Part shown: in pieces, positions 188-62,775 of the stretch | Layout of the letters: each line of letters opens with the position of its first letter | Position numbering within the stretch: position 1 is the stretch's first letter | Program-made: the position numbers and the translations under genes | Notes under the pieces: generated by a model | Seen by the model: the letters and a program-made list of their open reading frames with translations, nothing else | The model's database searches: none | Told to the model about the DNA's origin: nothing | Assembly: GCF_030684315.1 (NCBI RefSeq) | Contig: NC_081387.1 | Coordinates: forward strand, 3,700,497 to 3,764,496 | Length of the DNA stretch: 64,000 nt | Direction of reading: 5' to 3' | Source: Stegostoma tigrinum | Taxonomy: Eukaryota

Positions 188-913
188 TGTTGTCAGTTTG
201 AAAACCTCCGAGGATGAAGAATGCTCGTGTATTCCCACACGAGAAATCTGTCAAACACTTACCGGGGAACTGAGACAGCAGTTGCAATAAGTGAGGTTTT
301 ATTCAGATGAGGACAATGGCAAGTTTAAAATCCCCAACTGATCTACTGCTCAAAGTCATCTCCATTTCACCGGTCATTTTCCCAAACTTCGGGAAACTCA
401 TGTTGCCGCAGAAATATTTGGATTGGCTGTGAGAGACGTCAATCAGAGAGCCCACCCACTCTGCCCATTCTCTCCGCTTCCTCTTCCAGAGCTGGTTCAC
501 TTCCTGTAGGGACTGAAAACCAAGTGAGGAGATGGTGAGTGAAGGAGCAGCTTTTATACAAATTGTATCCCATAATATCCACACCAGTCTTCAGGCAGTC
601 TGACTATCCTGTGGGTAATCAGGGGTGGAAATGCCCCTTATGCTGTGTGAGAAGATCCAGCTGAGAGAGCTGTTTACTCGGTGCTTTGTGCTGAACTGTT
701 TGACTGGAGCTGTGTGTTGGATATTGAGTGTGTTTATTGGAAACATTTCCCTTCTGATTTCCAGCCTGAGTTTTGTTGATGGCTCATTCCTGAATATGAG
801 AAGGTGAGGCGTAATTATCTGGGAGGTGCAGAGTGTCTGAGGATTCTTACTGACTTCCTGTTGTTGAGTTCTGTATGTGTGTGTTGGGTGCTGGTTATTA
901 TCCTGTGGGCTGT
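188..913 (+). promoter_or_regulatory. ZF-cluster promoter/first-exon module, copy 1 (upstream of ZF gene 1)
   Basis: Near-identical copies at 6949-7372(-), 15332-16061(-), 16657-17350(+), 35350-36233(+), 47078-47785(+). Contains GATTGGCTG (inverted CCAAT, 421-429), GACGTCA (CRE-like, 435-441), CCCACCC (451-457), CACTTCCT (ETS-like, ~498-505) and ATG|GTGAGT (ATG 532-534, donor 535). Promoter function is inferred from position and motifs. Confidence 0.7.
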
Positions 914-2051
914 GACTTACTCAGTTCATTGGACACAACGTTGTCTTGCAGGAGCGGCCGTGCTGAGGAAGTCTTCCCTCAATACACAGGAATAGGAGTT
1001 AGCCATTTAGTGTGTGGGGCATGTTCCACCGTTCCGTGAGATCATGGTACATTGTCACCTGACTCCATATTCCTGCCCTTCCCTATCCGTTTAACACTTG
1101 AAGAAGAAAAATCTCAACTTTAATATTAACCATTGATTTGGCATATGTTTCATTTGTTAAGTTTCAAACCTCTACAACTTTATTGCGGAGTAGGAATATT
1201 TGCATAGGACTATTCAGCAATTAGCTCAAGCCTGCTACAGCATATTCATTCATGTTAGCTGATCACCTCCCTCAATGCCATTTTCCAGTTGTGATGAAAT
1301 TGGTTTATAAAATTTCTCACATAACTTCTTGAAATTTGATTTCAAGCTTATGGCAAATGGATGGTTATTACTTTTGTAACAGGTTATTGAAAAAAAAGTC
1401 AGTCAATCCTTCCAGAAACATGATCGCACCCAATATGTATAACAGCAGGGAACTGCTGTACTGTTAATGGTAAGCTGTTGGTACTGTGAAGCATTTAGAA
1501 CCGAAAGCATAAACATTAAGAGCCATCAGTTTGTTTTTGACTTGGTAAAATCAGGGCTTAGGAAACCCAAATATTGAAGTTTTCAAGCAGTTTTGAAGAG
1601 ACTGGCTGAAGTACAGGGAATAAATTCCCTGACCAGAAAGTCAGTTTGATTAAATAACAGACAAGGAGTGGTTGGTTCAAAGCTTGCAGTTTTATGGGCA
1701 CTAAAGTAAGCAAAGTTCAGAAGAAAGAACTGAGAGAAGTCAGCTGAATTACATTAGAAGATTTGAGGCAGACCTCTCTGGATTTGGGTCTATAAAGTGA
1801 TAGTTTATGGAGTAAGTGAAAACTTTGTGTGTTTAAGATCTTTTAAACTGTGTGGTCTTTTTAGATTGTTTGGTATGGTTTGTTTTATAACTTTTCCAAT
1901 TATGTAATAAGCTTTAAACTGTTTTAGATAATAACATCATTAATAACTTTTACAGGTAAATATGGCCTTTGCCAGAACAACTTAAGCTCATTGTGAATTG
2001 ACAGCCCATTTTACACTCCACCTGACTGTGTCTTTTTAATTGCCTTCACAG

Positions 2052-2669
2052 TGGCTGGGAACACGGGGTCTGAGTGGTGGAAAGAAGGGAGTTACACTGT
2101 CTGTTCCTGGTCACTATCCACAGTCCCAGCTGGAACCGGACTGTGTGACAGTCAAGTGAGGAAAGAAGAAAGGGGAATAGCACTCACTATGGAACAGTTT
2201 CTTACTGAGGAGTCAGCCCCTTCAGAAAAGGAGTAGAGGGAATTGTAGGAAGTCATGTTTTCTTTTCCTGTTTTACAGAAGGATTGCACCGTTCTAACCA
2301 AAGAATACAGAGAGGATAGACACTTCAGATAGATGCTCGACCATCACAGAAGGAACAACTGTACAACTCTGGAAAGACATCCAGTCCCTTCACAGCATGA
2401 CAGTGAAACCGTCATCTGGAATTCGACCAGATCAGGGAGGTTTATCTTATCATCAGATCTGAAACTGGTCAGTGGTGTGGAGCCTTCCATCGGAATGAAC
2501 CTTTCTGAAGGTTCGGCTGTGGGTGATCAGTCAGGGTGAGACTGGGAAGAAGTGTGAGTGGCTCCAAGTGTGGTGAGAGCTTCTGTTATTCATCAAACAT
2601 CAAAGCGTCCTACAATTCTTTTAATACAAAATGCATTTGTTGTATATCTGTTAATGAAAGGACAACATC
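2052..2669 (+). other. Conserved 5'-leader module of ZF gene 1: candidate exon 2052-2155, then acceptor TTTTACAG (2271-2278) and a non-coding leader with decayed fingers
   Basis: Homologous blocks precede every ZF unit (~13970-14350 -, 17800-18550 +, 34090-34690 -, 36390-36930 +, 59090-59730 +). Polypyrimidine tract plus CAG. CAG|TGG...CAA|GTGAGG borders for the small exon. Confidence 0.6.
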
Positions 2670-3281
2670 ATGGAAGAGAAACGCTTCAAGTGTGAGGTTT
2701 GTGACAAAGCTTTTGTGAAATCTACTCATCTCCTGATACACCAGAGAATTCACACGGGGGAGAAACCATTCAGGTGTCAGGTATGTCAGGCAGCTTTCAC
2801 CCAATCCTCCCACCTCCTAACCCACCAGAGGTTTCACACAGGAGAAAAACCATTCACATGTCAGGTTTGTAATAAATCATTCTCACAGTCATCAGGTCTC
2901 CACACACATCAACGTGTTCACACAGGGGAGAAACCATACATGTGCAAAGTGTGTGACAAATCATTCTCAGTGTCATCTGCTCTCCGCAGGCACCAACAAA
3001 TTCACACAGGGGAAAAGCCATTTGTGTGCCAGATTTGTGATAAATCGTTCTCACGGTCAACCGGCCTCCGTGAACATCAACGCACTCACACAGGGGAGAC
3101 ACCGTATACTTGTGAGATGTGTGACAAATCATTTTCACGGTCAGGGAACCTCCGCACACACCAACGCAACCACACTCAGGAGAAACTGTTCAAGTGCAAG
3201 GTTTGTGACATATCATTTTCAACATCACTGAAACTCTGTGAACATCAATGTAGTGAAGAAATCAGGGGGGATATAATTTAA
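2670..3281 (+). CDS. Poly-C2H2 zinc-finger protein (ZF gene 1): 6 complete fingers + 1 degenerate, no effector domain
   Basis: 203-aa ORF of C-x2-C-x12-H-x3-H repeats with TGEKP linkers; begins MEEKRF. Confidence 0.85.
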   Translation: MEEKRFKCEVCDKAFVKSTHLLIHQRIHTGEKPFRCQVCQAAFTQSSHLLTHQRFHTGEKPFTCQVCNKSFSQSSGLHTHQRVHTGEKPYMCKVCDKSFSVSSALRRHQQIHTGEKPFVCQICDKSFSRSTGLREHQRTHTGETPYTCEMCDKSFSRSGNLRTHQRNHTQEKLFKCKVCDISFSTSLKLCEHQCSEEIRGDII

Positions 3282-3349
3282 TTTCTGAGCTATGTGACAA
3301 ATCATTCTCAGGTTCATGAAACCTTCGTAAACATCAATGCATTCACACA

Positions 3350-6948: not shown

Positions 6949-7372
6949 ACCGAGTAAACAGCTCTCTCAGCTGGATCTTCTCACACAGCATAAGGGACAT
7001 TTCCACCCCTGATTACCCACAGGACAGTCAGACTGCCTGAAGACTGGTGTGGATATTATGGGATACAATTTGTATAAAAGCTGCTCCTTCACTCACCATC
7101 TCCTCACTTGGTTTTCAGTCCCTATAGGAAGTGAACCAGCTCTGGAAGAGGAAGAGGAGGGAATGGGCAGAGTGGGTGGGCTCTCTGATTGACGTCTCTC
7201 ACAGCCAATCCAAATATTTCTGCAGCGACATGAGTTTTCTGAAACTTGGGAAACTGACCAGTGAAATGGAGGTGACATTGAGCAGCAGATCAGGTGGGGA
7301 TTTAAACTTGTTATTGTCCCAACTGAATAAAACCTCACTTATTGCTGCTGCCTGTTAAGTGTTTGACAGAGA
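6949..7372 (-). promoter_or_regulatory. Orphan, truncated copy of the ZF promoter/first-exon module
   Basis: Reverse complement of ~245-681; keeps the CCAAT/CRE/ETS-like motifs and ATG|GTGAGT (7099-7091). No leader or ZF ORF follows on the minus strand. Confidence 0.7.
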
Positions 7373-12490: not shown

Positions 12491-13966
12491 TTATGTGTGA
12501 TTGTGATGATGAGCACAGAACTTTGATAACTCAGAGAAAGATTTGTCACATATGTCGCGTGTAAACATTTTTTCTCCTGTGTGGATGCGTCGGTGTCTGT
12601 GGAGATTCCCCAGCTGTGAGAATGATCTGTCACACATGTTGCACCTGAATGGTTTCTCCCCAGTGTGAATGCTGTGATGGAGCAGGAGGCTTGTGGAGGT
12701 GGCAAATGATTTGTCACATAGCTCACATGTGAACAGTTTCTCTCCTGTATGAATACGTTGGTGTCTGCGGAGGTTCCCCAACTGTGAGAATGATTTATCA
12801 CACACCTCACATGTGAATGGCTTTTCCCCTGTGTGAATCCTTTGGTGGAGCAGAAGGCTCGATGAGTCAGAGAATGATTTTGCACACACCTCACACGTAA
12901 ACAGTTTCTCCCCTGTGTGAATGTGTTCATGTCTGTGAAGATGCATTGACAGCGAGAATGATTTAATATGTGCATTACATATGAATGGATTCTCCCCTGT
13001 GTGGATGCGTTGGTGTCTACGGAGATTTCCCAACTGTGAGAATGATTTATCACACACCTCGCATGTGAATGGTTTTTCCCCGGTGTGAATGCTGTGATGG
13101 AGCAGGAGAGTTGATGAGTCAGAGAATGATTTGTTACACACCTTACACATAAATGCTTTCTCTCCTGTGTGAATACGTTGGTGTCTGCGGAGGTTCCCTA
13201 GCTGTGAGAATGATTTGTCACACACCTCACATGTGAATGGTTTTTCTCCTGTGTGAATCATCTGATGGAGCAGGAGGCTTGAGGAATCAGAGAATGATTT
13301 GTCACACACCTCACACTTGAATGGTTTCTCCCCTGTGTGAATTTGGTGGTGAGCATGAAGCTTTGATGACTGTGAGAATGATTTGTCGCACACATCACAC
13401 ATAAATGGCTTCTCACCTGTGTGAATGCGTTGGTGAACATGGAGGGCTGATGAATATGAGAATGATTTGTCACACACCTCGCATGAGAATGGTTTCTCCC
13501 CTGTGTGAATGCGTTGATGTGTACGGAGGTTCCCTAACTGAGAGAATGATTTTTCACATACCTCACAGATGAACAGCTTCTCCCCAGTGTGAATGCGTTG
13601 GTGCGTACGGAGGTTCCCGGATTGTGAGAATGATTTGTCACACACTTCACATGTGAAGGGTTTCTCCCCTGTGTGAGTCCGTTGGTGTGTGCGAAGATCT
13701 GATGACCAGGAGAATGATTTGTTACACACCTTGCACATGAATGGTTTCTTCCCAGTGTGAACAGGCCGATGGTTGACTAGACCTGATGACCGTGCAAAGC
13801 TCTTGTTACATTCCTCACACTTGAATGGTTTCTCCCCAGTGTGGATGCGTCGGTGATTTACAAATGCTGATAACTGTCTGAAAGCTCGATCACACACGTC
13901 ACACTTGAAGGGTTTCTCTTCCATGTAGTCTTTTGTATTATGGTAATCAACAGATGCACTTCGCAT
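12491..13966 (-). CDS. Poly-C2H2 zinc-finger protein (ZF gene 2): 17 fingers, 15 canonical; conserved start probably the MEEK ATG at 13924
   Basis: 491-aa ORF of tandem C2H2 fingers. Acceptor AG at 14297-14296 and promoter module at 15332-16061 on the same strand. Confidence 0.9.
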   Translation of the reverse strand: MRSASVDYHNTKDYMEEKPFKCDVCDRAFRQLSAFVNHRRIHTGEKPFKCEECNKSFARSSGLVNHRPVHTGKKPFMCKVCNKSFSWSSDLRTHQRTHTGEKPFTCEVCDKSFSQSGNLRTHQRIHTGEKLFICEVCEKSFSQLGNLRTHQRIHTGEKPFSCEVCDKSFSYSSALHVHQRIHTGEKPFMCDVCDKSFSQSSKLHAHHQIHTGEKPFKCEVCDKSFSDSSSLLLHQMIHTGEKPFTCEVCDKSFSQLGNLRRHQRIHTGEKAFMCKVCNKSFSDSSTLLLHHSIHTGEKPFTCEVCDKSFSQLGNLRRHQRIHTGENPFICNAHIKSFSLSMHLHRHEHIHTGEKLFTCEVCAKSFSDSSSLLLHQRIHTGEKPFTCEVCDKSFSQLGNLRRHQRIHTGEKLFTCELCDKSFATSTSLLLHHSIHTGEKPFRCNMCDRSFSQLGNLHRHRRIHTGEKMFTRDICDKSFSELSKFCAHHHNHT

Positions 13967-15231
13967 GCAACAAAATTATCTGAGCCTTTCTCACACTTGA
14001 AAAGCCTCTCACCTGTAAGAATGAGTCAATGCTTCATGAGACTCCATGAATGACTGAAGCTGTCACCACAGTTGGAGCCCACTCACACTTCTTCCCAGCT
14101 TCATCCTGACCGATCATTCACAGCTGAATCAGGAGGGGTTCCATTGCCATATGATGATTTTACTGTCCAACCTTCTTTGTGTTGAGCAATGCTGTGAAGG
14201 GACTGGATATCTTCCCAGTTATGCAGTTGTTCCTTGGGTGATGGTCAGGATCTACCTGTGGTGTCTGTCCTCTGGTGTAGTACAGTGCAATCCTTCTGTA
14301 AAACAGGAAAACATGATTTCCTCCAACTCCCTCTCCTTCTTTGCTGACTCCTCAGTTTTTTTTAATTTATACTTTCACAGGACTTGGCGGTCACTGGCAT
14401 TGCCAGCATGTATCGCTCATCCATAGTTTCCCTTGAGGAGGTGGGGGTGAACAAATTGTTCAATGTATTTGATTGTGATCATTTTCATGAGTAACACCAA
14501 GTCTCCAAATTAAAACACACAGAAAATGTTGGAGAAACACAACAGGTTTGACAACACATCACACTTCTTCAGAAACCACATCAGACTTCACACATTAATT
14601 GTATTTCTTGCCAAACCAGAGAAATTTGTTTCTGATTTCAGCATCTGCAGTATTTCGCTTTTACTTTAAACCAATAGCTGTTTTCAGTTCCACAAGATGG
14701 ATTAATGATCAGGAAACAGGACAAAGCAGTGCATCAGACATTTCCATTATTCTAATCGACTGTTCAGAGATGTGACTACATATCTTTGGAGCAGCTGGAA
14801 CTTAAACCTGAGCCTCCTGGGAGAGGGGTAGAGACACTACCACGGCACTACTAGAGGCCTTAGCATTAGATATTTCTAACAAATAAGATGCCATTCAGCT
14901 GATGATGGATGAAGAGGAATGAAAACTTCCAGGAATGATGTCCTGGCCAACAGTAATACTTCAATCAACACCACCGAAACACAGATGACCTAATCATGGT
15001 TATACTGTTGGTTGTGGGAATTTGCCTTGCACACATTCACTGCCGTGATTCCGAAGTGACCACACTTCAGAAGAAAGTGATAACTATCATGATGGTTGCA
15101 CATTTGGAGGTCAGGGAAAGGCTCCGTATAAATGCAAGCCTTTGTTCACTTTCCTGAGGGACGTATAGGGAGGTGGGAAGTCTTGTGAGGGATTGGTTAA
15201 GACAGGAAACATCCGGATCCCATCACGGAGA

Positions 15232-15309: not shown

Positions 15310-15331
15310 ACGGAGAGAGGTCCGGCTGTTC

Positions 15332-16061
15332 ACAGTCCACGGGACAGTAACCAGCTCCCAACACACACACACACACACAACTTAGCCACATGAAATCAGT
15401 AAGAATCCGCAGACACTCTGCTCCTCCCAGATAATTACCCCTCACCTTCTCATATCCAGGAATGAACCACCAACAAAACTCAGGCTGGAAATCAGGAGGG
15501 AAATGTTTCCAATAAACACACTCAATATCCAACACACAGCTCCAGTCTAACAGTTCAGCACAAAGCACCGAGTAAACAGCTCTCTCACTGGATCTTCTCA
15601 CACAGCATAAGGGACATTTCCACCCCTGATTACCCACAGGACAGTCAGACTGCCTGAAGATTGGTGTGGATATTATGGGATACAATTTGTATAAAAGCTG
15701 CTCCTTCACTCACCATCTCCTCACTTGGTTTTCAGTCCCTATAGGAAGTGAACCAGCTCTGGAAGAGGAAGAGGAGAGAATGGGCAGAGCGGGTGGGCTC
15801 TCTGATTGACGTCTCTCACAGCCAATCCAAATATTTCTGCAGCAACATGAGTTTCCTGAAGCTTGTGAAACTGACCTGTGAAATGGAGGTGACTTTGAGC
15901 AGCAGATCAGGTGGAGATTTAAACTTGTCATTGTCTCCATCTGAATAACACTTCACTTATTGCAGCTGCTGCCTCAGTTCCCCGGGACATGTTTGACAGG
16001 GATTTCAAGTGTGGGAATAGCATTCTTCATCCTCAGAGACTTTCAAACTGACATCAGTGAG
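15332..16061 (-). promoter_or_regulatory. ZF promoter/first-exon module copy (ZF gene 2)
   Basis: Reverse complement of the module; ATG 15716-15714, donor GT 15713-15712. Confidence 0.7.
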
Positions 16062-16656
16062 GGATGTGTATCCTTGCATGAGTTTGACAGCAGATCAGAA
16101 GAGAAAGACCCACAGCATCCAAGGAGCAATGGTGTCCGATGATGGAATCAGCTCATGCACAGGAGGGAGAGATATCAGAGGGAGGTGAATGAAAGCAGGG
16201 ATGTCATTACAAAATTGTCTGCGCATTTGAAGAGTGTCTCGAAGAGTTGCAAAGTAACCCAATAACTTCGGAAATGTAGTAGAGGTTGTTGTGTTAGAGT
16301 AGATCTCCCTCGAGTTGATTACTCAGATTCAGCATTCACTTCGTCTGGTTCTTCGCCTGGGCTATCCGAATCTCAATTGTCTGAGAGTGATATTGTGCAG
16401 CGTGTGTAGCCCGAGGATGATTTTGATCATTCACTCTCTCTGAATACCGTGATCCAACACCAAGGTGTACCGAGTACCTGAAACAGTTCTGTAAAATCCC
16501 ACCGCTTTTCTCTTTGAGCTGCCTCAGAGAGACATGTATGTACACAAACAACCCCTTCTCCTTAGTGTGACCTGCATGAAATGGTGACATCCACCATGGT
16601 AGGAAGGGGAGAATCTAGTCAGCTGACCATCAACTCACTGGACAGAAAATACATGC

Positions 16657-17350
16657 CTCACTGATGTCAGTTTGAAAGTCTCTGAGGATGAAGAATGCTA
16701 TTCCCTCACTAGAAATCTCTGTCAAACATTTACCAGGGGAACTGAGGCAGCAGCTGCAATAAGTGAGGCTTTATTTAGATGGGACAATGACAAGTTTAAA
16801 TCTCCACCTGATCTACTGCTCAAAGTCACCTCCATTTCACTGGTCAGTTTCACAAGCTTCAGGAAACTCATGTTGCTGCAGAAATATTTGGATTGGCTGT
16901 GAGAGACGTCAATCAGAGAGCCCACCCACTCTGCCCATTCTCTCCTCTTCCTCTTCCAGAGCTGGTTCACTTCCTATAGGGACTGAAAACCAAGTGAGGA
17001 GATGGTGAGTGAAGGAGCAGCTTTTATACAAATTGTATCCCATAATATCCACACCAGTCTTCAGGCAGTCTGACTGTCCTGTGGGCAATCAGGGGTGGAA
17101 ATGTCCCTTATGCTGTGTGAGAAGATCCAGCTGAGAGAGCTGTTTACTCGGTGCTTTGTGCTGAACTGTTTGACTGGAGCTGTGTGTTGGATATTGAGTG
17201 TGTTTATTGGAAACATTTCCCTCCTGATTTCCAACCTGAGTTTTGTTGATGGCTTATTCCTGAATATGAGAAGGTGAGGGGTCATTATATAGGAGGTGCA
17301 GAGTGTCTGAGGATTCTTACTGATTTCCTGTAGTTGAGTTCTGTGTGTGA
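16657..17350 (+). promoter_or_regulatory. ZF promoter/first-exon module copy (ZF gene 3), head-to-head with 15332-16061
   Basis: ATG 17002-17004, donor GT 17005; acceptor AG at 18100-18101. Confidence 0.7.
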
Positions 17351-18609
17351 GTGTGAGAGAGAGTGTATGACCTGGTGAAATAATCCTTGAAGAAGAGAAC
17401 AGAGTGGGCAGAGTGGGGAGCTCTCTGATTGATGTCTCACACAGTCAATCCAAATATTTCTAGATCAGGTGATAAGCAGAAATGCCTTTTCAGGGGACAT
17501 TAGGTGAGCACATTAGGGAGAAAGGAATGGAAAGGTCTGCTTATAGGGCGAGATAAGGAGGGGTGAGAGCAGGCTCCGATTAAACATAAGTACCAGCATG
17601 GGATAAATGGCCTGTTGTTCTCTGTATGCAACTTTTTGTGGTTAGATTTGAACTCCCAGCCTCTTGATTGTTTACCCAGCATCACAGCAATTCAGCATCT
17701 GTACTGAGAAACACATTAATTAAAATGTCTTTTTTATGTTAAACAGTCAGTCTGAGTGTAAAATGTCTCCATCAGGACGTCAAAGTTAACTGAATTGATA
17801 ATCTATTTTAGACTCCACCCGACCGTCTTTCCCATTGCCCTCATGTGCCTGGGAAGATCGGGGTCTGGGCTGAGGAACGAAAGTAGCCACATTGTCTGCC
17901 CCCGATCACTATCCAGTGTCCCTGCTGGAAACAGGGTGTGTGACAGTCAAGTGAGGAAAAAGAAAAGACTTGGATATGATCCCCTCCCCTAAAGACAGAC
18001 TGGCAGCCACTGTGGAACAGTCTGTCACAGAGGAGTCAGCCCCTTCAGCAAAAGAGGAGAGGGAGTTGGAGGGACTCATGTTTCCTTTTCCTGTTTTACA
18101 GAAAGATTGCATCGTATTATACCAGAGATTACAGAGAGGATAGACACTGTAGATAGATGCTGACTATCCCCCAAGGAACAGCTACACAACTGTGGGAAGA
18201 CATCCAGTCCCATCACAGCATTACTCGACACAGAAAAGGTTGGGCAGTGAAACTATCATCTGGAAGTCTCGTCAGGGAATTTTTGAGATATCATCAGATC
18301 TGAAACTGGTCAGTGGTGTGGAATCTTCCATCAGAACCAACCTTTCTGAAGATTCAGCTGTGGGCGCTCAGTCAGGGTGAGGCTGGGAGGCAGTGTGACT
18401 GGCTTCAAGTGTGATGACAGCTTTAGTTATTCATTGACCTCATGAACCACTGACTCACTCGTATAAATAAAAGGCTGTTCAAGTATGAGGTATATGAGGA
18501 GGGCTGCACAGGCTCATAAGATCTCCTGACAGCATGACAGAAGAGATACTTGGAAGTGAAGCCATTCACATGTGATGTGTGGAACCGAAACTACACTCAG
18601 TTGAGAGCC

Positions 18610-19311
18610 ATGAGAGACAAACTGATCGATAGAAGCAGCAAGACTTTCAGCTGCAAGCTCTGTGACAAATCATTTTCACAGTCATCATCCCTTCATGTGC
18701 ACCAACGCATTCACACCGGTGAGAAACCATTTACATGTGAAGTGTGTGACAAATCATTCTCAGACTCATCAACCCTCCGTAAACACCAGCGTATTCACAC
18801 AGGGGAAAAACCATTCACATGTGAGGTGTGTGACAAATCATTCTCTGATTCATCAAACTTCCGTGCACATCAACGTATTCATACTGGGGAGAAACCATTT
18901 ACGTGTGAAGTGTGCAACAAATCATTTTTGAAGGTAACAAATCTCCGTGCACACCGACGCATTCACACAGGGGAGAAACCATTCACATGTGAGGTGTGTA
19001 ACAAATCTTTTTCAAAATTAACAAACCTCCGCAGACATCAACACATTCACACGGGGGAGAAGCTGTTCTCCTGCGAAGTGTGTGACAAAGCATTTACACA
19101 GTCGTCAAATCTCCTAGACCATCAGACAGTGCACACAGGAGAAAAACCCTTCAAGTGTGAAATCTGTGATAAAGCTTTTGCCACATCTACAAGGCTGCTG
19201 AGACACCAGAGAATCCACACAGGGGAGAAACCATTCAAATGTTACGTTTGTGAAATGTCTTTTATCCAAACATCAGATCTCCTGAGGCACCAGCGGATTC
19301 ACACAGGGTAA
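18610..19311 (+). CDS. Poly-C2H2 zinc-finger protein (ZF gene 3): 8 fingers
   Basis: The ORF track starts at TTG 18550, the position homologous to the MEEK ATG. The first in-frame ATG is 18610 (GCCATGA). Eight C2H2 repeats; stop falls inside a TG(E) linker. Confidence 0.8.
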   Translation: MRDKLIDRSSKTFSCKLCDKSFSQSSSLHVHQRIHTGEKPFTCEVCDKSFSDSSTLRKHQRIHTGEKPFTCEVCDKSFSDSSNFRAHQRIHTGEKPFTCEVCNKSFLKVTNLRAHRRIHTGEKPFTCEVCNKSFSKLTNLRRHQHIHTGEKLFSCEVCDKAFTQSSNLLDHQTVHTGEKPFKCEICDKAFATSTRLLRHQRIHTGEKPFKCYVCEMSFIQTSDLLRHQRIHTG

Positions 19312-20290: not shown

Positions 20291-20329
20291 CACTTGTGTG
20301 ACAAACCCTGCCTGTGTGATATGCATCAG

Positions 20330-21225: not shown

Positions 21226-21229
21226 ACAT

Positions 21230-21670: not shown

Positions 21671-21679
21671 GACACATAC

Positions 21680-24759: not shown

Positions 24760-25434
24760 GCTATGAGATGTGTTTCTTTGATGAAATAACCCTGAATCTC
24801 TTACAGCTTGCATTTTTCTGATATGTGCATGATATATTTGTGATGGTTGAATCTGCAACCCCACCATAGAATTTCTTTAGATTGCTTAATAAGCTCCATC
24901 CTGCACTCAAACGTACCATTGGATTGGAGGAATGAAACAAGATCCCTTTCCTTAATTTATTGAGAAATTTGTTGTGTGCTCTTGATCACGACCAGCTGCA
25001 AGCCTACGTTCACTGGTCAATCTATATGTTTGGAATATTACAGTTCCTTGTGCTATAAGATCAGTCTAATTGACAACCTTGTGAATAGAGCTCAAGCCAA
25101 CTGCTCGTCCTTCAAGCTTGATGCTACGATTGGTTTATCAGTACTAGCCGACATGATGATCACTTGTTATAGAGACAAGCTTGTGAAAGTGCCTACATCT
25201 GACCTCAGAACTGCCCGTTGGAAAGGGAAGTTGTCCCAAAACATTGAGCAACATGTGAAACAGCTGTCCCAAGATACTACTTTGCAGTAAATGCGTAAGT
25301 GATTTTCTTTAACCACTGACAAGAAGTTGCTGTTAAATGGTGTGGTCTGTATGTTTCAGTGCGAGTGTGATGCCAGACATGTAGGCTCTATGTCTTGCTG
25401 ATTAGTGGACTGTTTCTAACAATACATCCATTTG
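24760..25434 (+). mobile_element. Old Penelope-like RT/GIY-YIG remnant; host of the younger Penelope insertion
   Basis: KPTFTGQ...YKISLIDNLVNRAQANCS and VVCMFQCECDARHVG remnants. Confidence 0.6.
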
Positions 25435-27356: not shown

Positions 27357-27519
27357 ACATCCGTTTGCCTGTTGGCAGTGTGCTCACAGTCTCTTGTAAA
27401 GACCATATCATTTTATGTATCTCTATTTTGGTTTTTGGAACAAATAGGGAAAGGACTGTTTTAAAACAAGGACAGTGGAGGTTGTGGCTACACTTCTTAA
27501 AAACAAATTTCTGGAATCA

Positions 27520-36933: not shown

Positions 36934-38205
36934 ATGGAAGAGAAACGCTTCCAGTGTGACATGTGTGACCGAGCTTTTGCAAGGTCTTCAATGCTTGTAA
37001 ATCACCGACACATTCACACTGGGGAGAAGCCTTTCAAATGTGAGGAGTGCAACAAGAGCTATGCGCGATTATCAGGTCTGGTGATTCACCGACGAGTTCA
37101 TACTGGGAAGAAACCGTTCACATGTGAGGTGTGTGAGAAATCATTCTTACAGTCATCAACCCTCCTCATGCACCAACGCATTCACACAGGGGAGAAACCA
37201 TTCACATGTGAGATATGCAATAAATCATTCTCACAGTCCTCAACGCTTGTTGTACACCAACGCATTCATACAGGGGAGAAACCATTCAAATGCAAGGTGT
37301 GTGACAAATCCTTCTCATCATCATCAGAACTTCGTGTACACCAACGTATTCACACAGGAGAGAAACCATTCAGTTGTGACTTGTGTGGTAAATCATTCTT
37401 GAGGTCATCAGAACTCCGTGTCCATCAACGCATTCACACAGGGGAGAAACCATTCACCTGCGAAGTATGTGACAAATCATTCTCATCATCATCACACCTC
37501 CGCGTCCATCAACGTATTCACACTGGAGAGAAACCATTCACCTGTGAAGTCTGTGACAAATCATTCTCATCATCATCAAACCTCCATGTGCACCAACGCA
37601 TCCACACAGGGCAGAAACCATTCCGGTGTGGGACGTGTGACAAATCATTCTCTCAGTCAGGAGACCTCTGCACGCACCATCTCATTCACACAGGGGAAAA
37701 ACTGTTTAAGTGTGAGATGTGTCAGAAATCATTCTCCAATTCATCGAGACTCCTGCGCCATCAGATGATTCATACAGGAGAGAAACCATTCAGGTGTGAG
37801 ATATGTGGCAAATTATTTTCACAGTTAGGAGACCTCCACAGTCACCAACGCATTCACACAGGGGAGAAACCATACACATGTGATGTGTGCATGAAATCAT
37901 TCTCTCATTCATCAACCCTCCGCAGACACCAACGTATTCACTCAGCAGAGAAACTATTTGCTTGTGAGGTGTGTGACAAATCATTTTCAAAGCCATTAAG
38001 CCTCCTGCTGCATCAGAGGACCCACACAGGGAAGAAACTATCTGTGTGTGAAGTGTGTAATAAATCATTCGCGAATTCATCGAATCTCCGCAGACACAAA
38101 AGCATCCACACAGGGGAGAAACCATTCACATGCGAAGTGTGTGACAAATCATTCTCAAAGTCCTGGAATCTCCTGCTCCATCAGAGGATTCACACAGGGG
38201 AGTAA
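36934..38205 (+). CDS. Poly-C2H2 zinc-finger protein (ZF gene 5): 15 fingers
   Basis: 423-aa ORF starting MEEKRF; stop falls inside a TGE(K) linker. Confidence 0.9.
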
Positions 38206-47077: not shown

Positions 47078-47785
47078 CTCACTGACGTCAGTTTGAAAGT
47101 CTCTGAGGATGAAGAATGCTATTCCCACACTAGAAATCTCTGTCAAACATTTACCAGGGGAACTGAGACAGCAGCTGCAATAAGGGAGGTTTTATTCAGA
47201 TGGGACAATGACAAGTTTAAATCTCCACCTGATCTGCTGCTCAAAGTCACCTCCATTTCACCGGTCAGTTTCCCAAGCTTCAGGAAACTCATGTTGCTGC
47301 AGAAATATTTGGATTGGCTGTGACAGACGTCAATCAGAGAGCCCACCCACTCCTCTTCCTCTTCCAGAGCTGGTTCACTTCCTATGGGGACTGAAAACCA
47401 AGTGAGGAGATGGTGAGTGAAGGAGCAGCTTTTATACAAATTGTATCCCATAATATCCACACCAATCTTCAGGCAGTCTGACTGTCCTGTGGGTAATCAG
47501 GGGTGGAAATGTCCCTTATGCTGTGTGAGAAGATCCAGTGAGAGAGCTGTTTACTCGGTGCTTTGTGCTGAACTGTTTGACTGGAGCTGTGTGTTGGATA
47601 TTGAGTGTGTTTATTGGAAACATTTCCCTCCTGATTTCCAGCCTGAGTTTTGTTGATGGTTTATTCCTGAATATGAGAAGATGAGGTGTAACTGTCTGGG
47701 AGGTGCAGAGTGTCTGAGGATTCTCACTGATTTCCTGGTGTTAGTTGTGTGTGTGTCGGCCGCTGGGTATTATCCTGTGGACTGT
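47078..47785 (+). promoter_or_regulatory. ZF promoter/first-exon module copy (unit 6)
   Basis: ATG 47410-47412, donor GT 47413; downstream 47900-48000 resembles 990-1080 of unit 1. Confidence 0.7.
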
Positions 47786-49390
47786 AATTTATACACTTCC
47801 TCTGAGGAAATGTGCTCATTTGGAGGTTTGTACTGAGGGAGAGCTATTCCCTGGGGAGAATTAAAATGACAGTGAGCTGCCTCATTTTGGGGGCTAAATA
47901 GAGGAATAGGAATCTGTCATTTAGTGTCTCCAGTATGTCCCATCGTTCATTGAGGTCATGGTACCTTTGTGATCAAATTCCATATTCCTGGCCTTCATGT
48001 CCTCCCAAACCTTTGGTGAGTGGAAAGCTGTCAATCTCAGATTGAATGGTATCAGTCGATGTTACATTGAAGAAGGTTTGTGGACGTGAGTTTCAATTTT
48101 ATTTCACCCATTGTGTCTGAGACTCTGTCCTGATTTTACTCTCAAAAGTCTGGCTCTAAATTTCCAATGATAGCACTGGTCTTGGACTCCCCAACTAATA
48201 AAAATTGATGATGTCTATCTCTTTTCTACTGAAAACTTTGATCATGTCAGCTTCTGAAGTGTGAGGCATATAATCTGACTCTAATCTCTTCTCATAATTT
48301 AAATCTTGCTAACGATGGATCATTCCAGCAAATCTACTCAGTACTCCCTCCAAGAACAATATATCTTATTCTGACGCAATGACAGGATTGTCTAGATCTT
48401 GCTGATTTTCACTCATTCTTAAACTTTGCAGCGATTGTTTATCATTGTTTGCTCAGCCATTTTAGAGGCCAGTTCAGTGTTAGCGATGTTGTGTGGGACT
48501 GGAGACACAGGTAGACCAGTCCAGGCAGATGTAGCAGGTTTGCGTTATGAAGGACAATATTTACGCTTAAGAACAAGATTTTTATATTTTGATTTTGCTC
48601 CACATATTCTAAAATTTATTAAATTTGCCTTCACAACATGGAGTTGTTGAGGTGATCAGCAGAGACACCTTTAAGAGGAAACTAGAGTCACGAAATGGAG
48701 GATGGGACAAAAAACTGTGGTTCTAAGAGCTGCTGCTTTTTTGGGGGTATTTTTAGTGTTGGAGCTGATTTCTGCAAATTTTAGGAGCAGTAATTGCTTT
48801 TTGATAAGCTGTTGTATTGTTTTGGAACTGTAGGTAAAAATGATTAAAACAATGGCACTTTCTAAAAGGAGGAAGAGAGAAAGAGCAGATACCAAGTGGG
48901 AAGTGAAATAATTGGAAAAATAAACCTGCACAGCTGTCTGACCCAGCAGTGAACCTCACACCTGACGGCCTCTGCTGTTCAGCTTCAAGTGTCTATAGAC
49001 ACAGAGTTGGTTCTAAGAAAAATAAACAAGTGGTAAAATTCCCAGCTGACCTTGGAGAAACCTGTGTGGAGTAGTTCACAGCAGGGGAGCAGCTAAGTGG
49101 CTAGTTTTTAGTGTAATCTTACCGTTCATTTTTGTAAATCTACAACAGTGAGAAGAGTGGTTCTTTTTTGATTATATGTTTTTATTGAGACCTGTCTCTT
49201 GATTAAATTTTAAAAATATACAACATAGGTACTAAGTTACCCTTAGAGCAGTATTTTTAGAGCAGCAAGACTGGGCTATTTTCTGGGTCTGTAGATTGTT
49301 AAGGGATGGGGCCAGGGGTTCCATCTGGCCTGCTCCCACTCGCTCAAGTGGCTGCCGGAGGGTTTTAAATAAATGTACATAAATGCAAAG

Positions 49391-49640: not shown

Positions 49641-52600
49641 AAAGTGAGTATCCGAAGACTTGACAAACGCAAGTCAGAGAGACTGAGCCGGCATTCCTGG
49701 CTGAGGCCTTCTTCGGCTTTTGGAAGGTTGATGATTGTGTGGTGTAATGCTTTAGAGGGACCCGGAACAGGACTTAAGAGAAGGAAAACTCTGATTTTAA
49801 ACCTCCACTGCCTTGCGGCCATAACCAATCATGGGAAAGGCTTCGGGAGTAAACCCTGAGGATAAATCTGGAGCCGGAGTCCCTAAGACAGTCTGATGTT
49901 ATATCCAACCTTGTTCTGGCAACTCCTGCGACGATGCCAGTGCCAAGTTGTATCGGCCCCTGCCCTTCCCTTGGACAACACTGGTGGTGTTGAGAGGGGA
50001 GACGTGCTGCATGGGCAACTGCCGATCTCTCATAAAACCCTGCCCAGGCCTGCGCCCTGGAGAGGACACTCCAGCGTCACCTCATTGTGGCGGCAAAACA
50101 CGGAAAGTAGCAGTCTACCAGTTATAAGCCGCGCTCGAGTGGCGTAGAGCAAGGCGCCAGGGGTTGCTTTCAACAGAGGGAGAGGCCATCGCGCCTGCCT
50201 GCCAATTAGGTGCTGTCCTGCCACAGTCTGCCCACTCCACTGGGTGCGTGGGGCTCAGCGGTACAAGTATCCTGAATCGTGGACTGTAAACACTGCACCA
50301 AGCAAAACAACAAGGAAACAAAGAAGGAAGCCAGCATTCAGACTTGGATGCTGGAACATATGGGCCATGACAACTGGTCTATCAGACGGCCTTCGAGAGA
50401 TCAGCGACACCAGCAAGGCAGCAGTGATAAACAACAAACTGCTACAGCTTCAAGTGGACATTGCAGCACCCCAAGGGACAAGGCTCCCAGAATCGGTGAC
50501 CTTATGTGAGAGAGACTATACCTTCTTCTGGCAGGGGAAAGGCATAGACGAGACCAGAGAGCATAGTGTCAGCTTTGCCGTGAAGAACTCGCTGTTGAAG
50601 AACCCAGCGAAGATGGATTGGAGCGGATCCTCTCACTTCGACTGCACACCTTCGATGGGCCTGTTAACCTTATCAGCACTTATGCCCCAACCCCCTATTC
50701 CATACAAGATGCGAAGGATGAGTTTTAAAGATCAGCTTTCAAGGAAAGTACAGGCGATCCCAAATCAGGAACAGTTGCTGCTACTTGGTGACTTCTACGC
50801 CAGAGTGGGTGCCGACCACAACTCCTGGCCAGGCTGTCTGGGACTGTATGGGATCGGCAACATGAATGAAAATGGACAACAACTGCTCAAGCTTTGCATG
50901 CTCCACGCACTATGTGTCACCAACACCTACTTCCAGGCCAAAGTGCAGCACAAAGACTCATGGCAACATCGCTGCTCCAGACACTGGCACCAGCTAGATC
51001 TGATCCTCACAAGATGCATCCATCTGAAAAACGTGCTCATGATTCGGTCCTTTCAGAGTGCTGACTGTGACATGGATCACTCCCTGGTTTGCTGCAAATT
51101 CAGACTCCAAGAAAAGAAGATGCACTACGCCAAGCCTGCAGGCAAGCAGCGTGTCAATGTTACTACGACCCAACATTCAGACAAAGCGGCAGTATTCATC
51201 AAGTCACTGGAGGATGCCCACCTTGTAGACCCACCAGAAGGAGCTGCTCAGCAGAGATGGGACTCTCTAAGGGACACTATCCTCAGCACTGTGTTGAAAA
51301 CTTTTGGGAAGAAGCGGAGCAAGACACAGATTGGTTCAAAGCAAATGCAAATGAGCTCAACACGAGGCAAAGCGCACTGCACTGTTGAAACACAAACACC
51401 AACCTACCCAGGTAACACTGCAAGCGCTGAGGACAGCAAGAAACAACGCACAGAAGACAGTCAGATGCTGTGCAAATGACTACTGTTTATAACTATGCAA
51501 AAGCATCCAGTTATCATTTAACACAGGCAACATATGTAGAATGTATGAGGGGATCAAGAAAGCCATCGGTCCAACCCAGAGCAAGACAGTTCCACTAAAA
51601 TCCAGGACAGGCGAGATCATCAAAGAAAAAAGCAAGCAGATGGAGAGATGGGTGGAGCATTACTCCGAACTCTACTCCCGGGAAAACGACATCTTGGACA
51701 ACGCGTTAGACACCATGGAATGCCTACCGGTCATGGAGGAGCTGGACGCATTGCCAACTGCTGTCGAGCTGAGCAGAGCCATCGACAGCTTACCCACAGG
51801 GAAGGCACCAGGGTTGGATGGCATCCCATCAGAGGTCATCAAGTATGCAAAGGGAGTTCTGCTTAGCCACCTGCTGGAACTACTGTGCCAGTGCTGGGAG
51901 GAGGAAACGGTGCCGCAAGACATGAGAGACTGCAACATTGTCACCCTCTATAAGAACAAAGGAGACAGAAGCGACTGCGACAACTACAGAGGAATCTCGC
52001 TGATGAACATCGTCGGGAAGGTCTTCGCCCGCATGGTCCTGAACAGACTACAGAAAATTGCCAAAAGGGTGTAGCCTGAATCCCAGGACGGTTTCAGGTC
52101 AGAATGCTCCACACAATCGACATGGTTTTCTCCCTCCGACAGCTACAAGAGAAATGCCGAGAGCAAAGACAACCACTCTGCATCGCTTTCGTTGACCTCA
52201 TGAGGGCATTTGACCCTGTGAGCAGAGACGGCTCGTTCAAAATCCTCGCCAGGGTTGGTTGTCCTCCCAGACTCCTCAGAATAGTCCAATTGTTTCACGC
52301 GGATATGAAAGGCATCGTTCAATTTGATGGCTCTTGGGAGGCTTTCAACATCCGCAGTGGCGTGAAGCAGGGCTGTGTGCTTGCCCTCACCCTGTTCGGC
52401 ATCTTCTTCACCGTCATGCTGAAACACACATTTGGAACATCAACTGCTGGGGTCTACCTCCACACCAGATCGGACGGAAGGCTGTTCAGTCTGTCCCGGC
52501 TGAAGGAAAAATCCAAGGTTCGTGAAGTACTCATTAGAGACATGTTGTTTGCAGATGACGCAGCGTTGGCAGCACACTCTGAAGAGCAACTGCAGCACCT

Positions 52601-53529
52601 CATGGACAACCTCTCCAGAGCCTGCCAGGAATTCAGCCTGACCATTAGTCTGAAGAAGACCAACGTGCTGGGTCAAGGTGTTGAGCACCCCCCTATCATC
52701 ACCATCAACAACTACGAGCTGGAGGTAGTCCACGATTAACATACTCGGCTCAACCATCAGAGTCAGCCTCTCCCTGAACTCCGAGATCAACAGGCAGATC
52801 AGACAAGCAGCCTCCACATTTGCCAGGCTGACTGACAGAGTCTGGGAGAACAAAAAGCTGACTACAAACACCAAGATTGCAGTCTACAGGGCATGCGTCC
52901 TCAGCACACTGCTTTACGGCAGCGAGACCTGGAGCCTGTACTCCAGACAAGAGCGGCGTCTCAACGCTTTCCACCTTCGCAGCCTGAGACACATTCTGGA
53001 CATCAAGTGGACTGACCAAGTCACCAACACCGAAGTCCTCACCTGCGCCCAGGTACTCCGCCTCTTCACCCTACTCTAACAACACCACCTCCGCTGGTTA
53101 GGCCACGTACCTCATATGCCGGACGGGAGGATCCCGCAAGATGTGCTGTACGGGGAATTGGCCATCGCTAAGAAAGCACAAGGACGACCTCATCTTTGTT
53201 TCAAAGATGTCTGCAAAAGGGACATAAAGTCAATGGACCTGTACATCAAGAGATAAGAAGACATCACAAACGATCGCTCACGCTGGAGACGGGAACTACG
53301 CAGAGGCCTGGAGCAAGGAGAGGAGAAACTGAGACTTGCCGCTGAGGAAAAGTGCGCTCGACAGAAAGACAGCAACACGGCAACACTGGAGGACAGTGTC
53401 TTCAAACATAGTCACTGCAACCGAGACTGTCACTCCCGTGTGGGCCTGTACAGCCACAACAGCAGCTGAATCAAAACTCTCCGGGCGCAGATCCATGGTC
53501 TCTCGACACTGACGGATGCCACAACACAC
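49641..53529 (+). mobile_element. Near-full-length RTE-clade LINE (APE endonuclease + RT), with stops and frameshifts
   Basis: LGCWNI..., LLGDFYARVG, WHQLDLIL, DCDMDH; NYRGISL, AFVDLMRAFD, GVKQGC, MLFADD, LYGSETW, LRWLGHV; 3' end CCATGGTCTCTCGACACTGACGGATGCC + (AC/AAC) tail. Confidence 0.9.
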
Positions 53530-58900: not shown

Positions 58901-59089
58901 TCTCGCACTTCTTGCCCAGTTTATTTTCTTTAAATAATTTTCAAAAATGAGGGGAGGAATTTCTTAAACACCATCGAATTTTAAAGTCTCCGGAGTATTT
59001 TTGCATATTAAACACATACTCTTAAGTGTAAAGCTAGTCTTCACCAGCAAAACACAAACTAATAATGAATTGAGAGCCTGTTTTATACT

Positions 59090-59730
59090 TGGCCCAACTA
59101 TTTTTCCCATTGTCCTCTTAGTGCCTGGGAAGATGGGGGCCAGAGTCAAGGAAATGAAATAGCCTTACTGTCTGCTCCTGATCATGATGCAGTGCCCCTG
59201 CTGGACACAGTGGTGAATGACAGTCAAGTGAGGGAAAAGAAAGAACTTGTATCTGATCCCCAACACAGGGAAATAGCAGACTGGCACACACTGTGAAACA
59301 GTCTCTAACTGAGGAGTCAGCCCCTTCAGCAAAGGAAAATCACATTTGCTTTTCCTGTTCTACTGAAGGATTACACCATATACACCAGAACATAGACAGG
59401 ATATACTTCGTAGATAGATGCTGACCATCACCCAAGGTACAACTGTGGAAAGACATCCAGCCCCTTCACAGCATTGCTCAACACAGAGAAGTTTGGTTAG
59501 TGAAGCCATCATCTGGAAATCGGTAGGGTCAAGGGAGCTTTGACATATCATCAGATCTGAAAATGGTCAGTGGTGTGGAGCCTTTGATTAGAGCCAACTA
59601 TTTTAAGGTTTGCGTGTGAGTGATTGCTGAGAGTGAGGCTGGCAAGTGAGTGTGAGGGACTCCACGAGGTGACAAGACCATCAAACACACAAGGTGCATT
59701 TGTTGTATACCTGTTAAGGAAAGAGCAACA
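59090..59730 (+). other. Leader module of ZF unit 6, main acceptor mutated (AG>TG at 59364-59365)
   Basis: Homologous to 2030-2665. Confidence 0.7.
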
Positions 59731-61062
59731 GAGAACATAGAACAGTACAGCACAGAACAGGCCCTTCAGCCCACGATGTTGTGCCGACCATTGATCCTCA
59801 TGTATGCACCCTCAAATTTCTGTGACCATATGCATGTCCAGCAGTCTCTTAAATGACCCCAATGACCTTGCTTCCACAACTGCTGCTGGCAACGCATTCC
59901 ATGCTCTCACAACTCTCTGTGTAAAGAACCCGCCTCTGACATCCCCTCTATACTTTCCTCCAACCAGCTTAAAACTATGACCCCTCGTGTTAGCCATTTC
60001 TGCCCTGGGAAATAGTCTCTGGCTATCAACTCTATCTATGCCTCTCATTATCTTGTATACCTCAATTAGGTCTCCTCTCCTCCTCCTTTTCTCCAATGAA
60101 AAGAGACTGAGCTCAGTCAACCTCTCTTCATAAGATAAGCCCTCCAGTCCAGGCAGCATCCTGGTAAACCTCCTCTGAACCCTCTCCAAAGCATCCACAT
60201 CTTTCCTATAATAGGGCGACCAGAACTGGACGCAGTATTCCAAGTGCGGTCTAACCAAAGTTTTATAGAGCTGCAACAAGATCTCACGACTCTTAAACTC
60301 AATCCCCCTGTTAATGAAAGCCAAAACTCCATATGCTTTCTTAACAACCCTGTCCGCTTGGGTGGCCATTTTAAGGGATCTATCTATCTGCACACCAAGA
60401 TCCCTCTGTTCCTCCACAATGCCAAGAATCCTATCCTTAATCCTGTACTCAGCTTTCAAATTCGACCTTCCAAAATGCAACACCTCGCATTTATCCAGGT
60501 TGAACTCCATCTGCCACCTCTCAGCCTATCTCTGCATCCTGTCAATGTCCCGCTGCAGCCTACAACAGCCCTCTATACTGTCAACGACACCTCCAACCTT
60601 CGTGTCGTCTGCAAACTTGCTGACCCATCCTTCAATCCCCTCATCCAAGTCATTAATAAAAATTACAAACAGTAGAGGCCCAAGGACAGAGCACTGTGGA
60701 ACACAACTCACCACTGACTTCCAGGCAGAATGTTTTCCTTCTACTACCACTCGCTGCCTTCTGTTGGCCAGCCAATTCTGTATCCAGACAGCTAAGTTCC
60801 CCTGTATCCCATTCCTCCTGACCTTCTGAATGAGCCTTATCAAATGGGGAACCTTATCAAATGCCTTACTGAAGTCCATATACACCACATCCACAGCTCG
60901 ACCCTCATCAACTTTTCTAGTCACATCCTCAAAGAACTCGATAAGGTTTGTGAGGCATGACCTGCCCCTCACAAAGCCATGTTGACTGCATTTAATCTAG
61001 CCATGCTCTTCCAGATGGTCATAAATCCTATCCCTCAGAATCCTTTCTAACATCTTGCAGAC
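59731..61062 (-). mobile_element. Young 5'-truncated CR1 LINE
   Basis: Long ORFs 60526-60972 (YMDFSKAFDKVPH, KFADDTK) and 59812-60510; AGAACAT-type tail. Confidence 0.92.
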
Positions 61063-61065
61063 ATC

Positions 61066-61992
61066 ATAGAAGAGAAGCGCTTCAAGCGTGAGTTTTGTGA
61101 TAAAGCTTTTGTGAATTCCACTCGCGTGTTGATACACCAGAGAATTCACACAGGGGAGAAACCATTCAGGTGTCAGGTACGTCTGGCGGCTTTCATCCAA
61201 TCCTCTCACCTCCTAACCCACCAGAGGTTTCACACAGGAGAAAAACCATTCACATGTCAGGTGTGTAATAAATCATTCTCACGGTCTTCAAGCCTTCTTG
61301 AACACCAACGCATTCGCATAGGTGAGAGGCCATTCAAATGCAGAAGTTGTGAGAAATCATTCTCAGTGTCATCTGCTCTCCACTGTCAATAACCTACTCA
61401 CACAGGGGAAAAGCTATTTGTGTGCAAGATTTGTGATAAATCATTCTCGCGGTCAACCGGCCTCCGTGAACATCAATGTACTTGCACAGGAGAAAAACCA
61501 TTCAAGTGTGAGGTGTGTAACAAATCATTTTCACAGTCAGGAAATCTCCACGTACACCGATGCATCCACATTGGGGAGAATCTGTTCAAGAGTAATGTGT
61601 GTGACAAATTATTCCCTGACTCATCAAGACTCCTGCTCCGTCAGAGAATTCACACAGGGGAGAAACCATTTATATGTAAGATATGTCACAAATCATTCTC
61701 AATGTCATCAAAACTATGTGCACACCAGCATATTCACACTGGTGAGAAACCATTCACATGTGACACAAGCTTGTTTGGAGAATTGGATATAGTGGGAGGC
61801 TGCTAAGGTGAGTTATGTTTTTAACAAGGCATTTAACTTGCTGCCTGTGAAAAGCAGGAAAGATGGAGTGAGTTGCCTCTGGCACTGAGATGGACCTCAC
61901 TGTCCCAATTCTGCCAAACAGCTTGCCATAGAGGTATGTGACAAATCTTTTTCAGAGTCATCAAACCTGCATAAACATCAACACCTTCACAC
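61066..61992 (+). pseudogene. ZF pseudogene (unit 6), closest paralog of ZF gene 1
   Basis: ATG>ATA at 61066, lost Cys residues, internal TAA at 61390-61392; first three fingers closely match gene 1. Confidence 0.85.
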
Positions 61993-62775
61993 AAGTACAA
62001 GCAAGGGAAGCATATGTACATCACCAATATGCTGTTGAGAGCTGCTGTCTCTTAAGGAAGTTGACGCTGGTCGAGAGCAAAACAGAAACATTGAATTGGA
62101 CAGAAGGCGTCTTGATCAGATCAAACTATACAAGGACATACAAGTCTTCAAATGTTGCAGGCAGTTGTGATGAATAGATGGCCTGAAACAATCTGTTGCT
62201 GTAAGAGAGAATTGGATAGAGACAAGGATGTACAAAGAGACCTTATTCCTCTTGTAATGGAAAATCAAACCCAGCCAGGATCTCAGTACAGTATAACAAT
62301 GGTCTTAATTCAAGTGTACACAGAGAGAGCGGCCAAGAGGATTCCAGTTCTTCCACAAACAGATCTTACTTTTATGTTCAGAAACCACAATAGGCTATGT
62401 GTTCTTTTGCATGTAAACGTTTACTGAGAAAAATCACATAGCTACTGTCTACCACTTTAATGATAGAAGTTGGTTTTGACTCCTATTGATAAAGGTCTTG
62501 CTTTGCTTGATGGCACCAGTTGTAGTTTGTTGTCTAGCTTCCAATGTTCTAACTCAACCCAGTTCTTGGAGCTCTCAGCATTTGTCAACGTAAGTCAAAC
62601 TCACTTATGCTTTATGTTGCCCCATGCTTGATATCTCAAAAATCCCAAAAGAGACAGAAAATGAGATATTGAAGTGTAATCAAGTCAATGAGTGTAATCT
62701 GATGAAAGTAAGATAAATACCCTACTGAGCATATATCAGCAATGAATGTAAGGACCACATCAGCAAGTGCTATGT
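61993..62775 (+). mobile_element. Gypsy pol remnant homologous to 3350-3830, interrupted by other sequence at ~62200-62620
   Basis: YKQGKHMYITNMLLRA; GCAGTTGTGATGAATAGATGGCCTGAAAC; AGGACCACATCAGCAAGTGC. Confidence 0.65.

Follow-up and report, generated by a model that had tools for sequence, protein, structure and literature searches.

How do the genes of one tandem family keep a nearly identical promoter and first exon while the sequences behind them diverge? The question is raised by a stretch of 64,000 nucleotides from Stegostoma tigrinum (the window; contig NC_081387.1, here C44, C44:3700497-3764496, in a genome of 3.2 Gb). Six-frame scans and self-BLAST confirmed the six C2H2 zinc-finger units that an earlier, sequence-only reading had described, and located six copies of a 700-base module comprising a predicted promoter, exon 1 and the intron start. 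The window covers only a small part of one cluster of ∼3.4 Mb (C44 1.55–4.95 Mb). We interpret it as an old shark cluster of two-exon, finger-only C2H2 genes. Short gene conversion events, recurring between copies, are the most likely reason why their predicted promoters, first exons and intron starts stay alike as the leaders and finger arrays drift apart. The existence of such a shark ZNF cluster, with finger-only genes, an upstream open reading frame (uORF) and concerted evolution of the promoter/exon-1 module, is real and well supported.

Divergence of modules, leaders and arrays

We mapped 1.05 Mb of the cluster, picked around motif matches plus one continuous block; the cluster counts given here are lower bounds. 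The mapped DNA contains 103 modules that span the donor, and 84 leaders whose acceptor could be scored. For 64 units both the leader and the module core (−150 to +150 relative to the exon-1 ATG) could be scored. Mean pairwise difference was 4.2% in the core versus 20.2% in the leader, and no two leaders were closer than 11.9%. Identity to consensus has the shape of a tent: its maximum of 0.99 lies shortly after the intron begins, it is still 0.97 out to +205, and at the acceptor and the beginning of the leader it amounts to 0.87–0.91. The distances between modules do not correlate with those between leaders (rho 0.013, p 0.29), which taken alone is weak evidence, since the two halves of the leader barely correlate with each other (rho 0.04). 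Leader distances between genes whose arrays are colinear are average (0.18–0.22 in seven pairs; three more were unscorable), and the closest arrays stand at a synonymous divergence (dS) of about 0.48.

The sequence-only reading had proposed one reusable cassette, copied as a unit. This part of it did not hold: the parts of the cassette have different histories and are not copied as a unit today. The pattern favours gene conversion that is still under way over recent duplication of the cassette.

Three stronger tests (dead genes, unlinked variants and species shifts) strongly favour gene conversion as the probable cause. In eight dead units, bases of zinc-ligand and Phe codons have decayed at 36 of 440 positions (8.2%). 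Core deviation in dead units is 36/2258 (1.6%) versus 1.4% in 48 live units; a separate comparison of dead and live cores for closeness to consensus gave p 0.73. At 176 of the 300 core sites at most one copy deviates. The high-frequency non-CpG core variants (55:44 at +55, 73:24 at +74, 65:30 at −106 and 50:31 at −150) are unlinked, with r2 ≤0.11 and all four combinations present in 23 of the 24 pairs listed. The majority letter also shifts between species. At +74, G is found in 73 of 97 copies here and A is dominant in all four runs compared at that site; at +84, T is found in 85 of 97 copies and C is the sole letter in the four compared there; the letters of organisms C and D at −124 and −62 are those of 7/92 and 2/96 copies here. 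Among the best 40 rows of the cross-species comparison, 8 of 21 module rows versus 1 of 15 leader rows depart from the consensus of this genome (four single-contig rows at 18062–18066 were left out, and 32 rows beyond the best 40 are uncounted).

Splicing and the upstream open reading frame

Exon 1 ends in ATG and is spliced to a leader of ∼450 nt, as had been proposed from the sequence. The exon-1 ATG is joined straight to the leader start in spliced contigs from four related organisms, all different from this species, in runs guessed to be RNA. The joint of unit U3 (17003/17004 to 18101) has exact GT..AG borders in runs X1 and X16, and joints of U5 start from 35697. Nine of the 12 spacer sequences listed begin at the exon-1 donor and resemble the starts of different paralogous leaders; minor alternative donors also appear in these contigs. 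The leader, put at ∼400 nt by the sequence-only reading, measures 329–508 nt in the window, counted from the acceptor to the main ATG; the median over the cluster is 459 nt.

The exon-1 ATG starts a short uORF and not the finger frame, which has an ATG of its own. The uORF has 14 codons in 34 of 84 units and 61 at the longest, and is never in frame with the fingers (0/84). Only two units have a frame open from acceptor to array, out of phase with the exon-1 ATG. Therefore no effector exon enters by the exon-1 ATG route. The contigs of the four organisms, moreover, contain no additional coding exon, such as the upstream effector exon that the sequence-only reading had named as its counter-case. 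The leader carries a median of four further ATGs and ends in two decayed fingers. A hidden coding linker in the leader was rejected (18% of indels are multiples of three and there is no codon phase), and a constrained uORF peptide is unsupported (frequent frameshifts; the ratio of nonsynonymous to synonymous differences, pN/pS, is 0.66). The uORFs would hold down protein output through re-initiation or leaky scanning. In zebrafish, translation of tandem fingers leads to ribosome collisions and mRNA decay (PMC11620358; this and the other papers are cited for parts of their text), which could favour uORFs that lower output. On the minus strand a donor-like site lies at module position −268; the contigs are blind to strand, and bidirectional use of the module is possible.

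Finger proteins and selection

The 57 intact open reading frames (ORFs) encode at least five 28-residue C2H2 fingers each, with TGEKP-type linkers (641 fingers profiled), and in all 57 no domain besides the fingers was found. Seven residues precede the first Cys in 37 proteins and 11–47 in the others, and tails have at most 35 residues. A single KRAB match among 58 candidates scored genome-wide lies outside the cluster, in a PRDM9-type gene on another contig (C53:4201628-4225148) with a KRAB exon, PR/SET exons and a near-identical array of 10 fingers. With finger-only ORFs, and with KRAB only in the PRDM9-type gene, the effector-less character claimed for the family holds. No SCAN fusion was found among the 150 of 863 candidates scored (one match within the cluster span has a stop codon), and leader frames shut ahead of the fingers argue against a SCAN exon fusion. 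A FiNZ-type N-terminus was not seen in the 7–47 N-terminal residues, which are linker or degenerate finger; no search with a FiNZ profile was made. Pfam zf-C2H2 was found on all four intact ORFs of the window, the other matches above the cut-off being composition matches such as BolA. Among the 120 matches listed for each protein search aimed at shark orthologues there was no named shark protein and none above 61% identity; these lists favour long arrays and are not evidence of absence.

Helix positions −1, 3 and 6 are the most variable of the finger (3.2–3.4 bits), as the sequence-only reading had noticed, and 390 distinct four-residue signatures occur among the 641 fingers. Selection was assessed on 31 colinear finger pairs from 11 gene comparisons, picked on flanking fingers only, a choice that favours conserved arrays. 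Overall, nonsynonymous divergence (dN) was 0.072 versus dS 0.48; dN was 0.135 at positions −1, 3 and 6 versus 0.085 in the framework. In these paralogous pairs dN/dS at contact residues was 0.28 (bootstrap 0.15–0.48), below 1. Live finger ORFs are thus under purifying selection, base-contacting residues included; by this test the genes are functional, and duplicates mostly retain their specificity. The expectation of non-neutral ORFs was borne out. The dN/dS analysis of helix positions that had been called for thus does not demonstrate an arms race with transposons. Episodic positive selection at contact residues may still occur, given the few comparisons and the bias of pair choice towards conserved arrays. 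Nearest-neighbour finger pairs are saturated and were not used for the selection claim. Finger 2 of C44:3638563 and finger 7 of C44:3651926 are 1.2% apart in genes otherwise diverged; four between-gene pairs lie within 5%, and local conversion or finger shuffling may have produced such single-finger likeness.

Extent of the cluster

The genome-wide module count suggested by the sequence-only reading gave 81 exact matches to a 31-base module motif, all on C44 (1.55–4.89 Mb). A 29-base leader motif (≤2 mismatches) had 69 matches, 68 in the C44 cluster and one on contig C1; reversed-pattern controls had none versus 81 and 69, so the matches are not due to chance. A finger-DNA search pattern, with only one match, was too specific for counting. 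Of the 84 leaders, 57 lead to an intact ORF (5–23 fingers), 21 belong to dead units and six were unscorable as the fetched DNA ended; the gene death noticed in the window thus recurs in the cluster. In an almost unbroken stretch of 298 kb, 13 of the 18 modules have an intact ORF behind them, three have a dead unit, one is an orphan and one is ambiguous; a same-direction leader follows within 16 kb in 16 of the 18. Six leaders first scored as module-less had a module further up, and a seventh had a fragment. Decayed fingers behind the arrays, seen earlier in the window, recur within 600 nt of the stop codon in 26 of 50 scorable intact genes.

Several leaders with no module of their own detected stand back-to-back with a module (window 34561–35695, C44 3200252, 3605580, 3922110 and 4747760). 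The C1 match (C1:36987163-36987496, minus strand) is a lone leader copy whose acceptor has decayed; the 10 kb of sequence examined there contain neither a module nor an array. Its origin as a retrocopy was rejected: the intron end is kept and neither exon 1 nor an array was found in those 10 kb. Another ZNF cluster, unrelated and with ORFs that also appear to be finger-only, lies at C55 2.28–2.62 Mb and 8.78–8.80 Mb. Twelve of its ORFs, sampled in 200 kb, have neither the C44 module nor the C44 leader, and besides repeat-like pieces no comparable common upstream block was found within 7 kb.

Probable gene conversion and alternative explanations

Under gene conversion, tracts would centre on the transcription start: open promoter chromatin probably attracts breaks, which would place the tracts on the predicted promoter. 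That breaks at open promoters are the trigger is weakly inferred. Conversion would give about 100 copies one common on-switch, and each protein would bind its own DNA target, acting by occupancy or through finger-recruited partners, as proposed for OZF/ZNF146, with no KRAB-type domain.

Several points weigh against this interpretation. Core motifs are conserved (the CRE-like motif in 84 of 96 covered copies, the ATG-donor in 96 of 103), and selection therefore probably contributes. Dead genes could keep their promoter for an antisense or non-coding transcript, and in one dead unit the core has clearly decayed (17/271). Core differences show no AT-to-GC excess (393 strong-to-weak versus 218 weak-to-strong) and no sign of GC-biased conversion. 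The letters compared between species were read from contigs of expressed copies, 1–10 contigs per site in the best 40 rows, from runs whose RNA status was guessed and none of which is from this species. Conversion itself is inferred from sequence patterns. The break-at-promoter step is the weakest, because the genome has a PRDM9-type gene: PRDM9 in mammals and salmonids steers hotspots off promoters, and promoter-like hotspots occur despite PRDM9 in snakes and many mammals, though not in salmonids (PMC11703093).

An unlikely source of the module likeness is strong purifying selection on promoter, exon 1 and an intronic enhancer alone, with no exchange between copies. It would fit the conserved factor-like motifs and the closeness of the module across organisms (2–5 differences per ∼230 bases). 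However, the core is kept in dead units, 29 of the 95 covered copies have a changed CCAAT-like box at −106 (window 16896; one common change accounts for 27), exchange is needed for the unlinked variants of high frequency and for majority letters that shift between species, and the contig letters suggest modules that group by species. Low divergence and the presence of orphan and partial copies might suggest a young non-autonomous mobile element, inserted ahead of older zinc-finger genes and donating its promoter; we regard this as very improbable, as all 81 exact matches lie within 3.3 Mb of one contig in the 3.2-Gb genome, 16 of the 18 modules in the 298-kb block face a same-direction leader within 16 kb, and identity fades by degrees with no sharp termini. 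Only one assembly is at hand, but it is scarcely credible that similar promoters were collapsed in assembly or polishing, given copies 1–4% apart with common variants, unique flanks and internal insertions, and given the module in contigs of four other organisms.

The arrays could also be a transposon-recognition repertoire in an arms race, a shark counterpart of KRAB- and FiNZ-ZNFs. This is compatible with gene conversion, and we hold it as a tentative possibility. The variability at −1, 3 and 6 with its 390 signatures agrees with it, as do LINE (long interspersed element) fragments in the window, a ZNF number that tracks retroelement number across animals (PMC10547256) and the binding of LINE-1 by finger-only ZNF146 (PMC8896011). 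Against it stand the contact dN/dS of 0.28 in colinear paralogues (where choice by flank similarity favours conserved pairs), the lack of young whole-gene duplicates among the 64 leaders and of any effector domain, and ZNF146 loss that left L1 repressed in the cells tested (PMC8896011); the density of transposable elements near the cluster is uninformative about targets. A more far-reaching proposal is rather improbable. It holds that ∼100 effector-less finger proteins form a shark-specific genome-surveillance family run as one regulon. A conversion hotspot, fixed where transcription starts and persisting from species to species even with a PRDM9-type gene present, would rewrite every promoter and upstream ATG to one version; expression of the whole family would then evolve together, and the arrays would each retain a repeat target of their own and silence it without KRAB.

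Units and modules of the window

Five units had been given a module of their own ending in ATG-GTGAGT, and the five stand (ATG at 532, 15716 on the minus strand, 17002, 35695 and 47410), although the count omitted a sixth, orphan copy (6949–7372). The module of U1 (161–915, plus strand; ATG 532–534, donor GT 535) differs from the cluster consensus at 7 of ∼300 core bases. It is followed by an acceptor and non-coding exon-2 leader (2265–2669; AG ends at 2278, spliced uORF of 18 codons) and a finger-only coding sequence of 203 aa with 6 fingers (2670–3281); a decayed finger extends 3′ of it to about 3352. The orphan truncated module (6949–7372, minus strand, ATG at 7099) has a core 4 of ∼300 bases off consensus and no leader or array behind it within the window.

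U2, on the minus strand, consists of a module (15330–16082, ATG 15716), a leader with acceptor (13967–14310, AG ending at 14296) and a coding sequence of 491 aa (12491–13966) with 15 canonical and 2 degenerate fingers, 17 in all; decayed fingers run on to about 12225. Its module stands back-to-back with that of U3 (16651–17354, plus strand, ATG 17002–17004), whose donor is the one used in the spliced contigs of related organisms. Motifs that we take to be CCAAT-, CRE-, GT-box- and ETS-like lie at −110, −97, −81 and −34 of the U3 module. An inverted partial copy of the promoter core sits directly behind this module (17389–17461), and a similar one behind the module at C44:4019407. The U3 acceptor and leader (18088–18609, plus strand; AG ends at 18101, uORF of 14 codons) precede a coding sequence of 233 aa with 8 fingers (18610–19311) and decayed fingers behind it.

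The plus-strand U5 has a module (35332–36252, ATG 35695–35697) interrupted near 35960–36150, an acceptor and leader (36448–36933; AG ends at 36461, uORF stopping after 3 codons) and a coding sequence of 423 aa with 15 fingers (36934–38205). The range of 6–17 fingers reported earlier is thus correct, and so are the two dead units, U4 and U6. U4 (33150–34575, minus strand) retains an acceptor at 34561, a leader and a dead array at about 33150–34130; it has no module of its own and stands back-to-back with that of U5. The plus-strand module of U6 (47078–47799, ATG 47410) is near consensus, with 3 of 286 core bases different. Its leader (59308–59730) has the acceptor common to the units in mutated form, AG reading TG at 59365, as described earlier. 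The dead array (61061–61800) contains stop codons and has lost its start and Cys; it is a paralogue of U1 (84% over 554 bases). A broken LINE with reverse transcriptase lies within the U6 intron (50148–52739, plus strand; RVT_1, E 2.5e-18), and another LINE fragment, presumably CR1-type, is inserted between leader and array (59812–60996, minus strand). A zebra-shark record matches the CR1 reverse transcriptase of the window with 83% identity, which supports a shark origin of the DNA. Elsewhere, a 135-base perfect duplicate occupies 31764–31898 and 33782–33916, one copy within the dead U4 array, and 25388–27631 holds two inverted copies of an abundant repeat (87% over 932 bases).

Comparison with known systems

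Each part of the system has a precedent, in the BGW element, OZF and zebrafish ZNF clusters. In tetrapod KRAB-ZNFs all fingers lie in one exon. These genes resemble the shark family in clustered arrays, TGEKP linkers, variable positions −1, 3 and 6 and many dead copies (PMC10547256); they differ in having a KRAB exon, where the shark exon-1 ATG meets a stop within 61 codons. KRAB-box families have been lost in cartilaginous fishes (PMC8455134).

The closest precedent for the module is the BGW element of mammalian BEX/WEX/GASP genes, a first 5′ untranslated exon homogenised by gene conversion while the coding parts diverge (PMC1274310). There too the genes are clustered with one coding exon, the 5′ element stays alike as coding sequence diverges, copies without a coding gene exist and a role in translation control has been suggested (PMC1274310). 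Likewise, the shark 5′ element is far closer between paralogues than neighbouring parts and has a history of its own. BGW differs in having ∼23 human copies instead of ∼100, in its unrelated proteins and in raised G+C, a bias not seen here; the shark tract also covers the predicted promoter and ∼200 intron bases and holds the upstream ATG.

The FiNZ-ZNFs of zebrafish chromosome 4 are also a lineage-specific tandem C2H2 cluster without KRAB and with common promoter classes, and one morpholino to a highly conserved stretch of their 5′ untranslated region hits more than 200 genes (PMC10547256, PMC11620358). FiNZ genes have an N-terminal domain that the shark genes lack; positive selection was found in 4 of 7 young FiNZ clades, whereas contact dN/dS is below 1 in the shark paralogous pairs and no young clade appears among the shark leaders compared. 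ZNF146/OZF has C2H2 fingers only (10 in OZF), has no KRAB and binds LINE-1 (PMC8896011); it is a single human gene, and the large shark family is likened to it by the finger-only layout. A literature search, in which few subscription papers were covered, brought up no account of the shark C44 cluster and none of a ZNF cluster whose promoters undergo conversion. The main text of PMC10547256 does not mention sharks, which its supplementary per-genome ZNF counts may include; the parts considered of PMC11603059 and bioRxiv 10.1101/2025.03.01.640934 add nothing on the shark finger family.

The C44 cluster shows that a vertebrate lineage without KRAB-ZNFs has a large tandem ZNF family, finger-only and laden with uORFs, and it extends promoter-centred concerted evolution to a scale of ∼100 copies. 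The near-identical exon-1/donor sequence offers a single target for family-wide knock-down, making it testable whether effector-less ZNF arrays act against transposons outside tetrapods and cyprinids.

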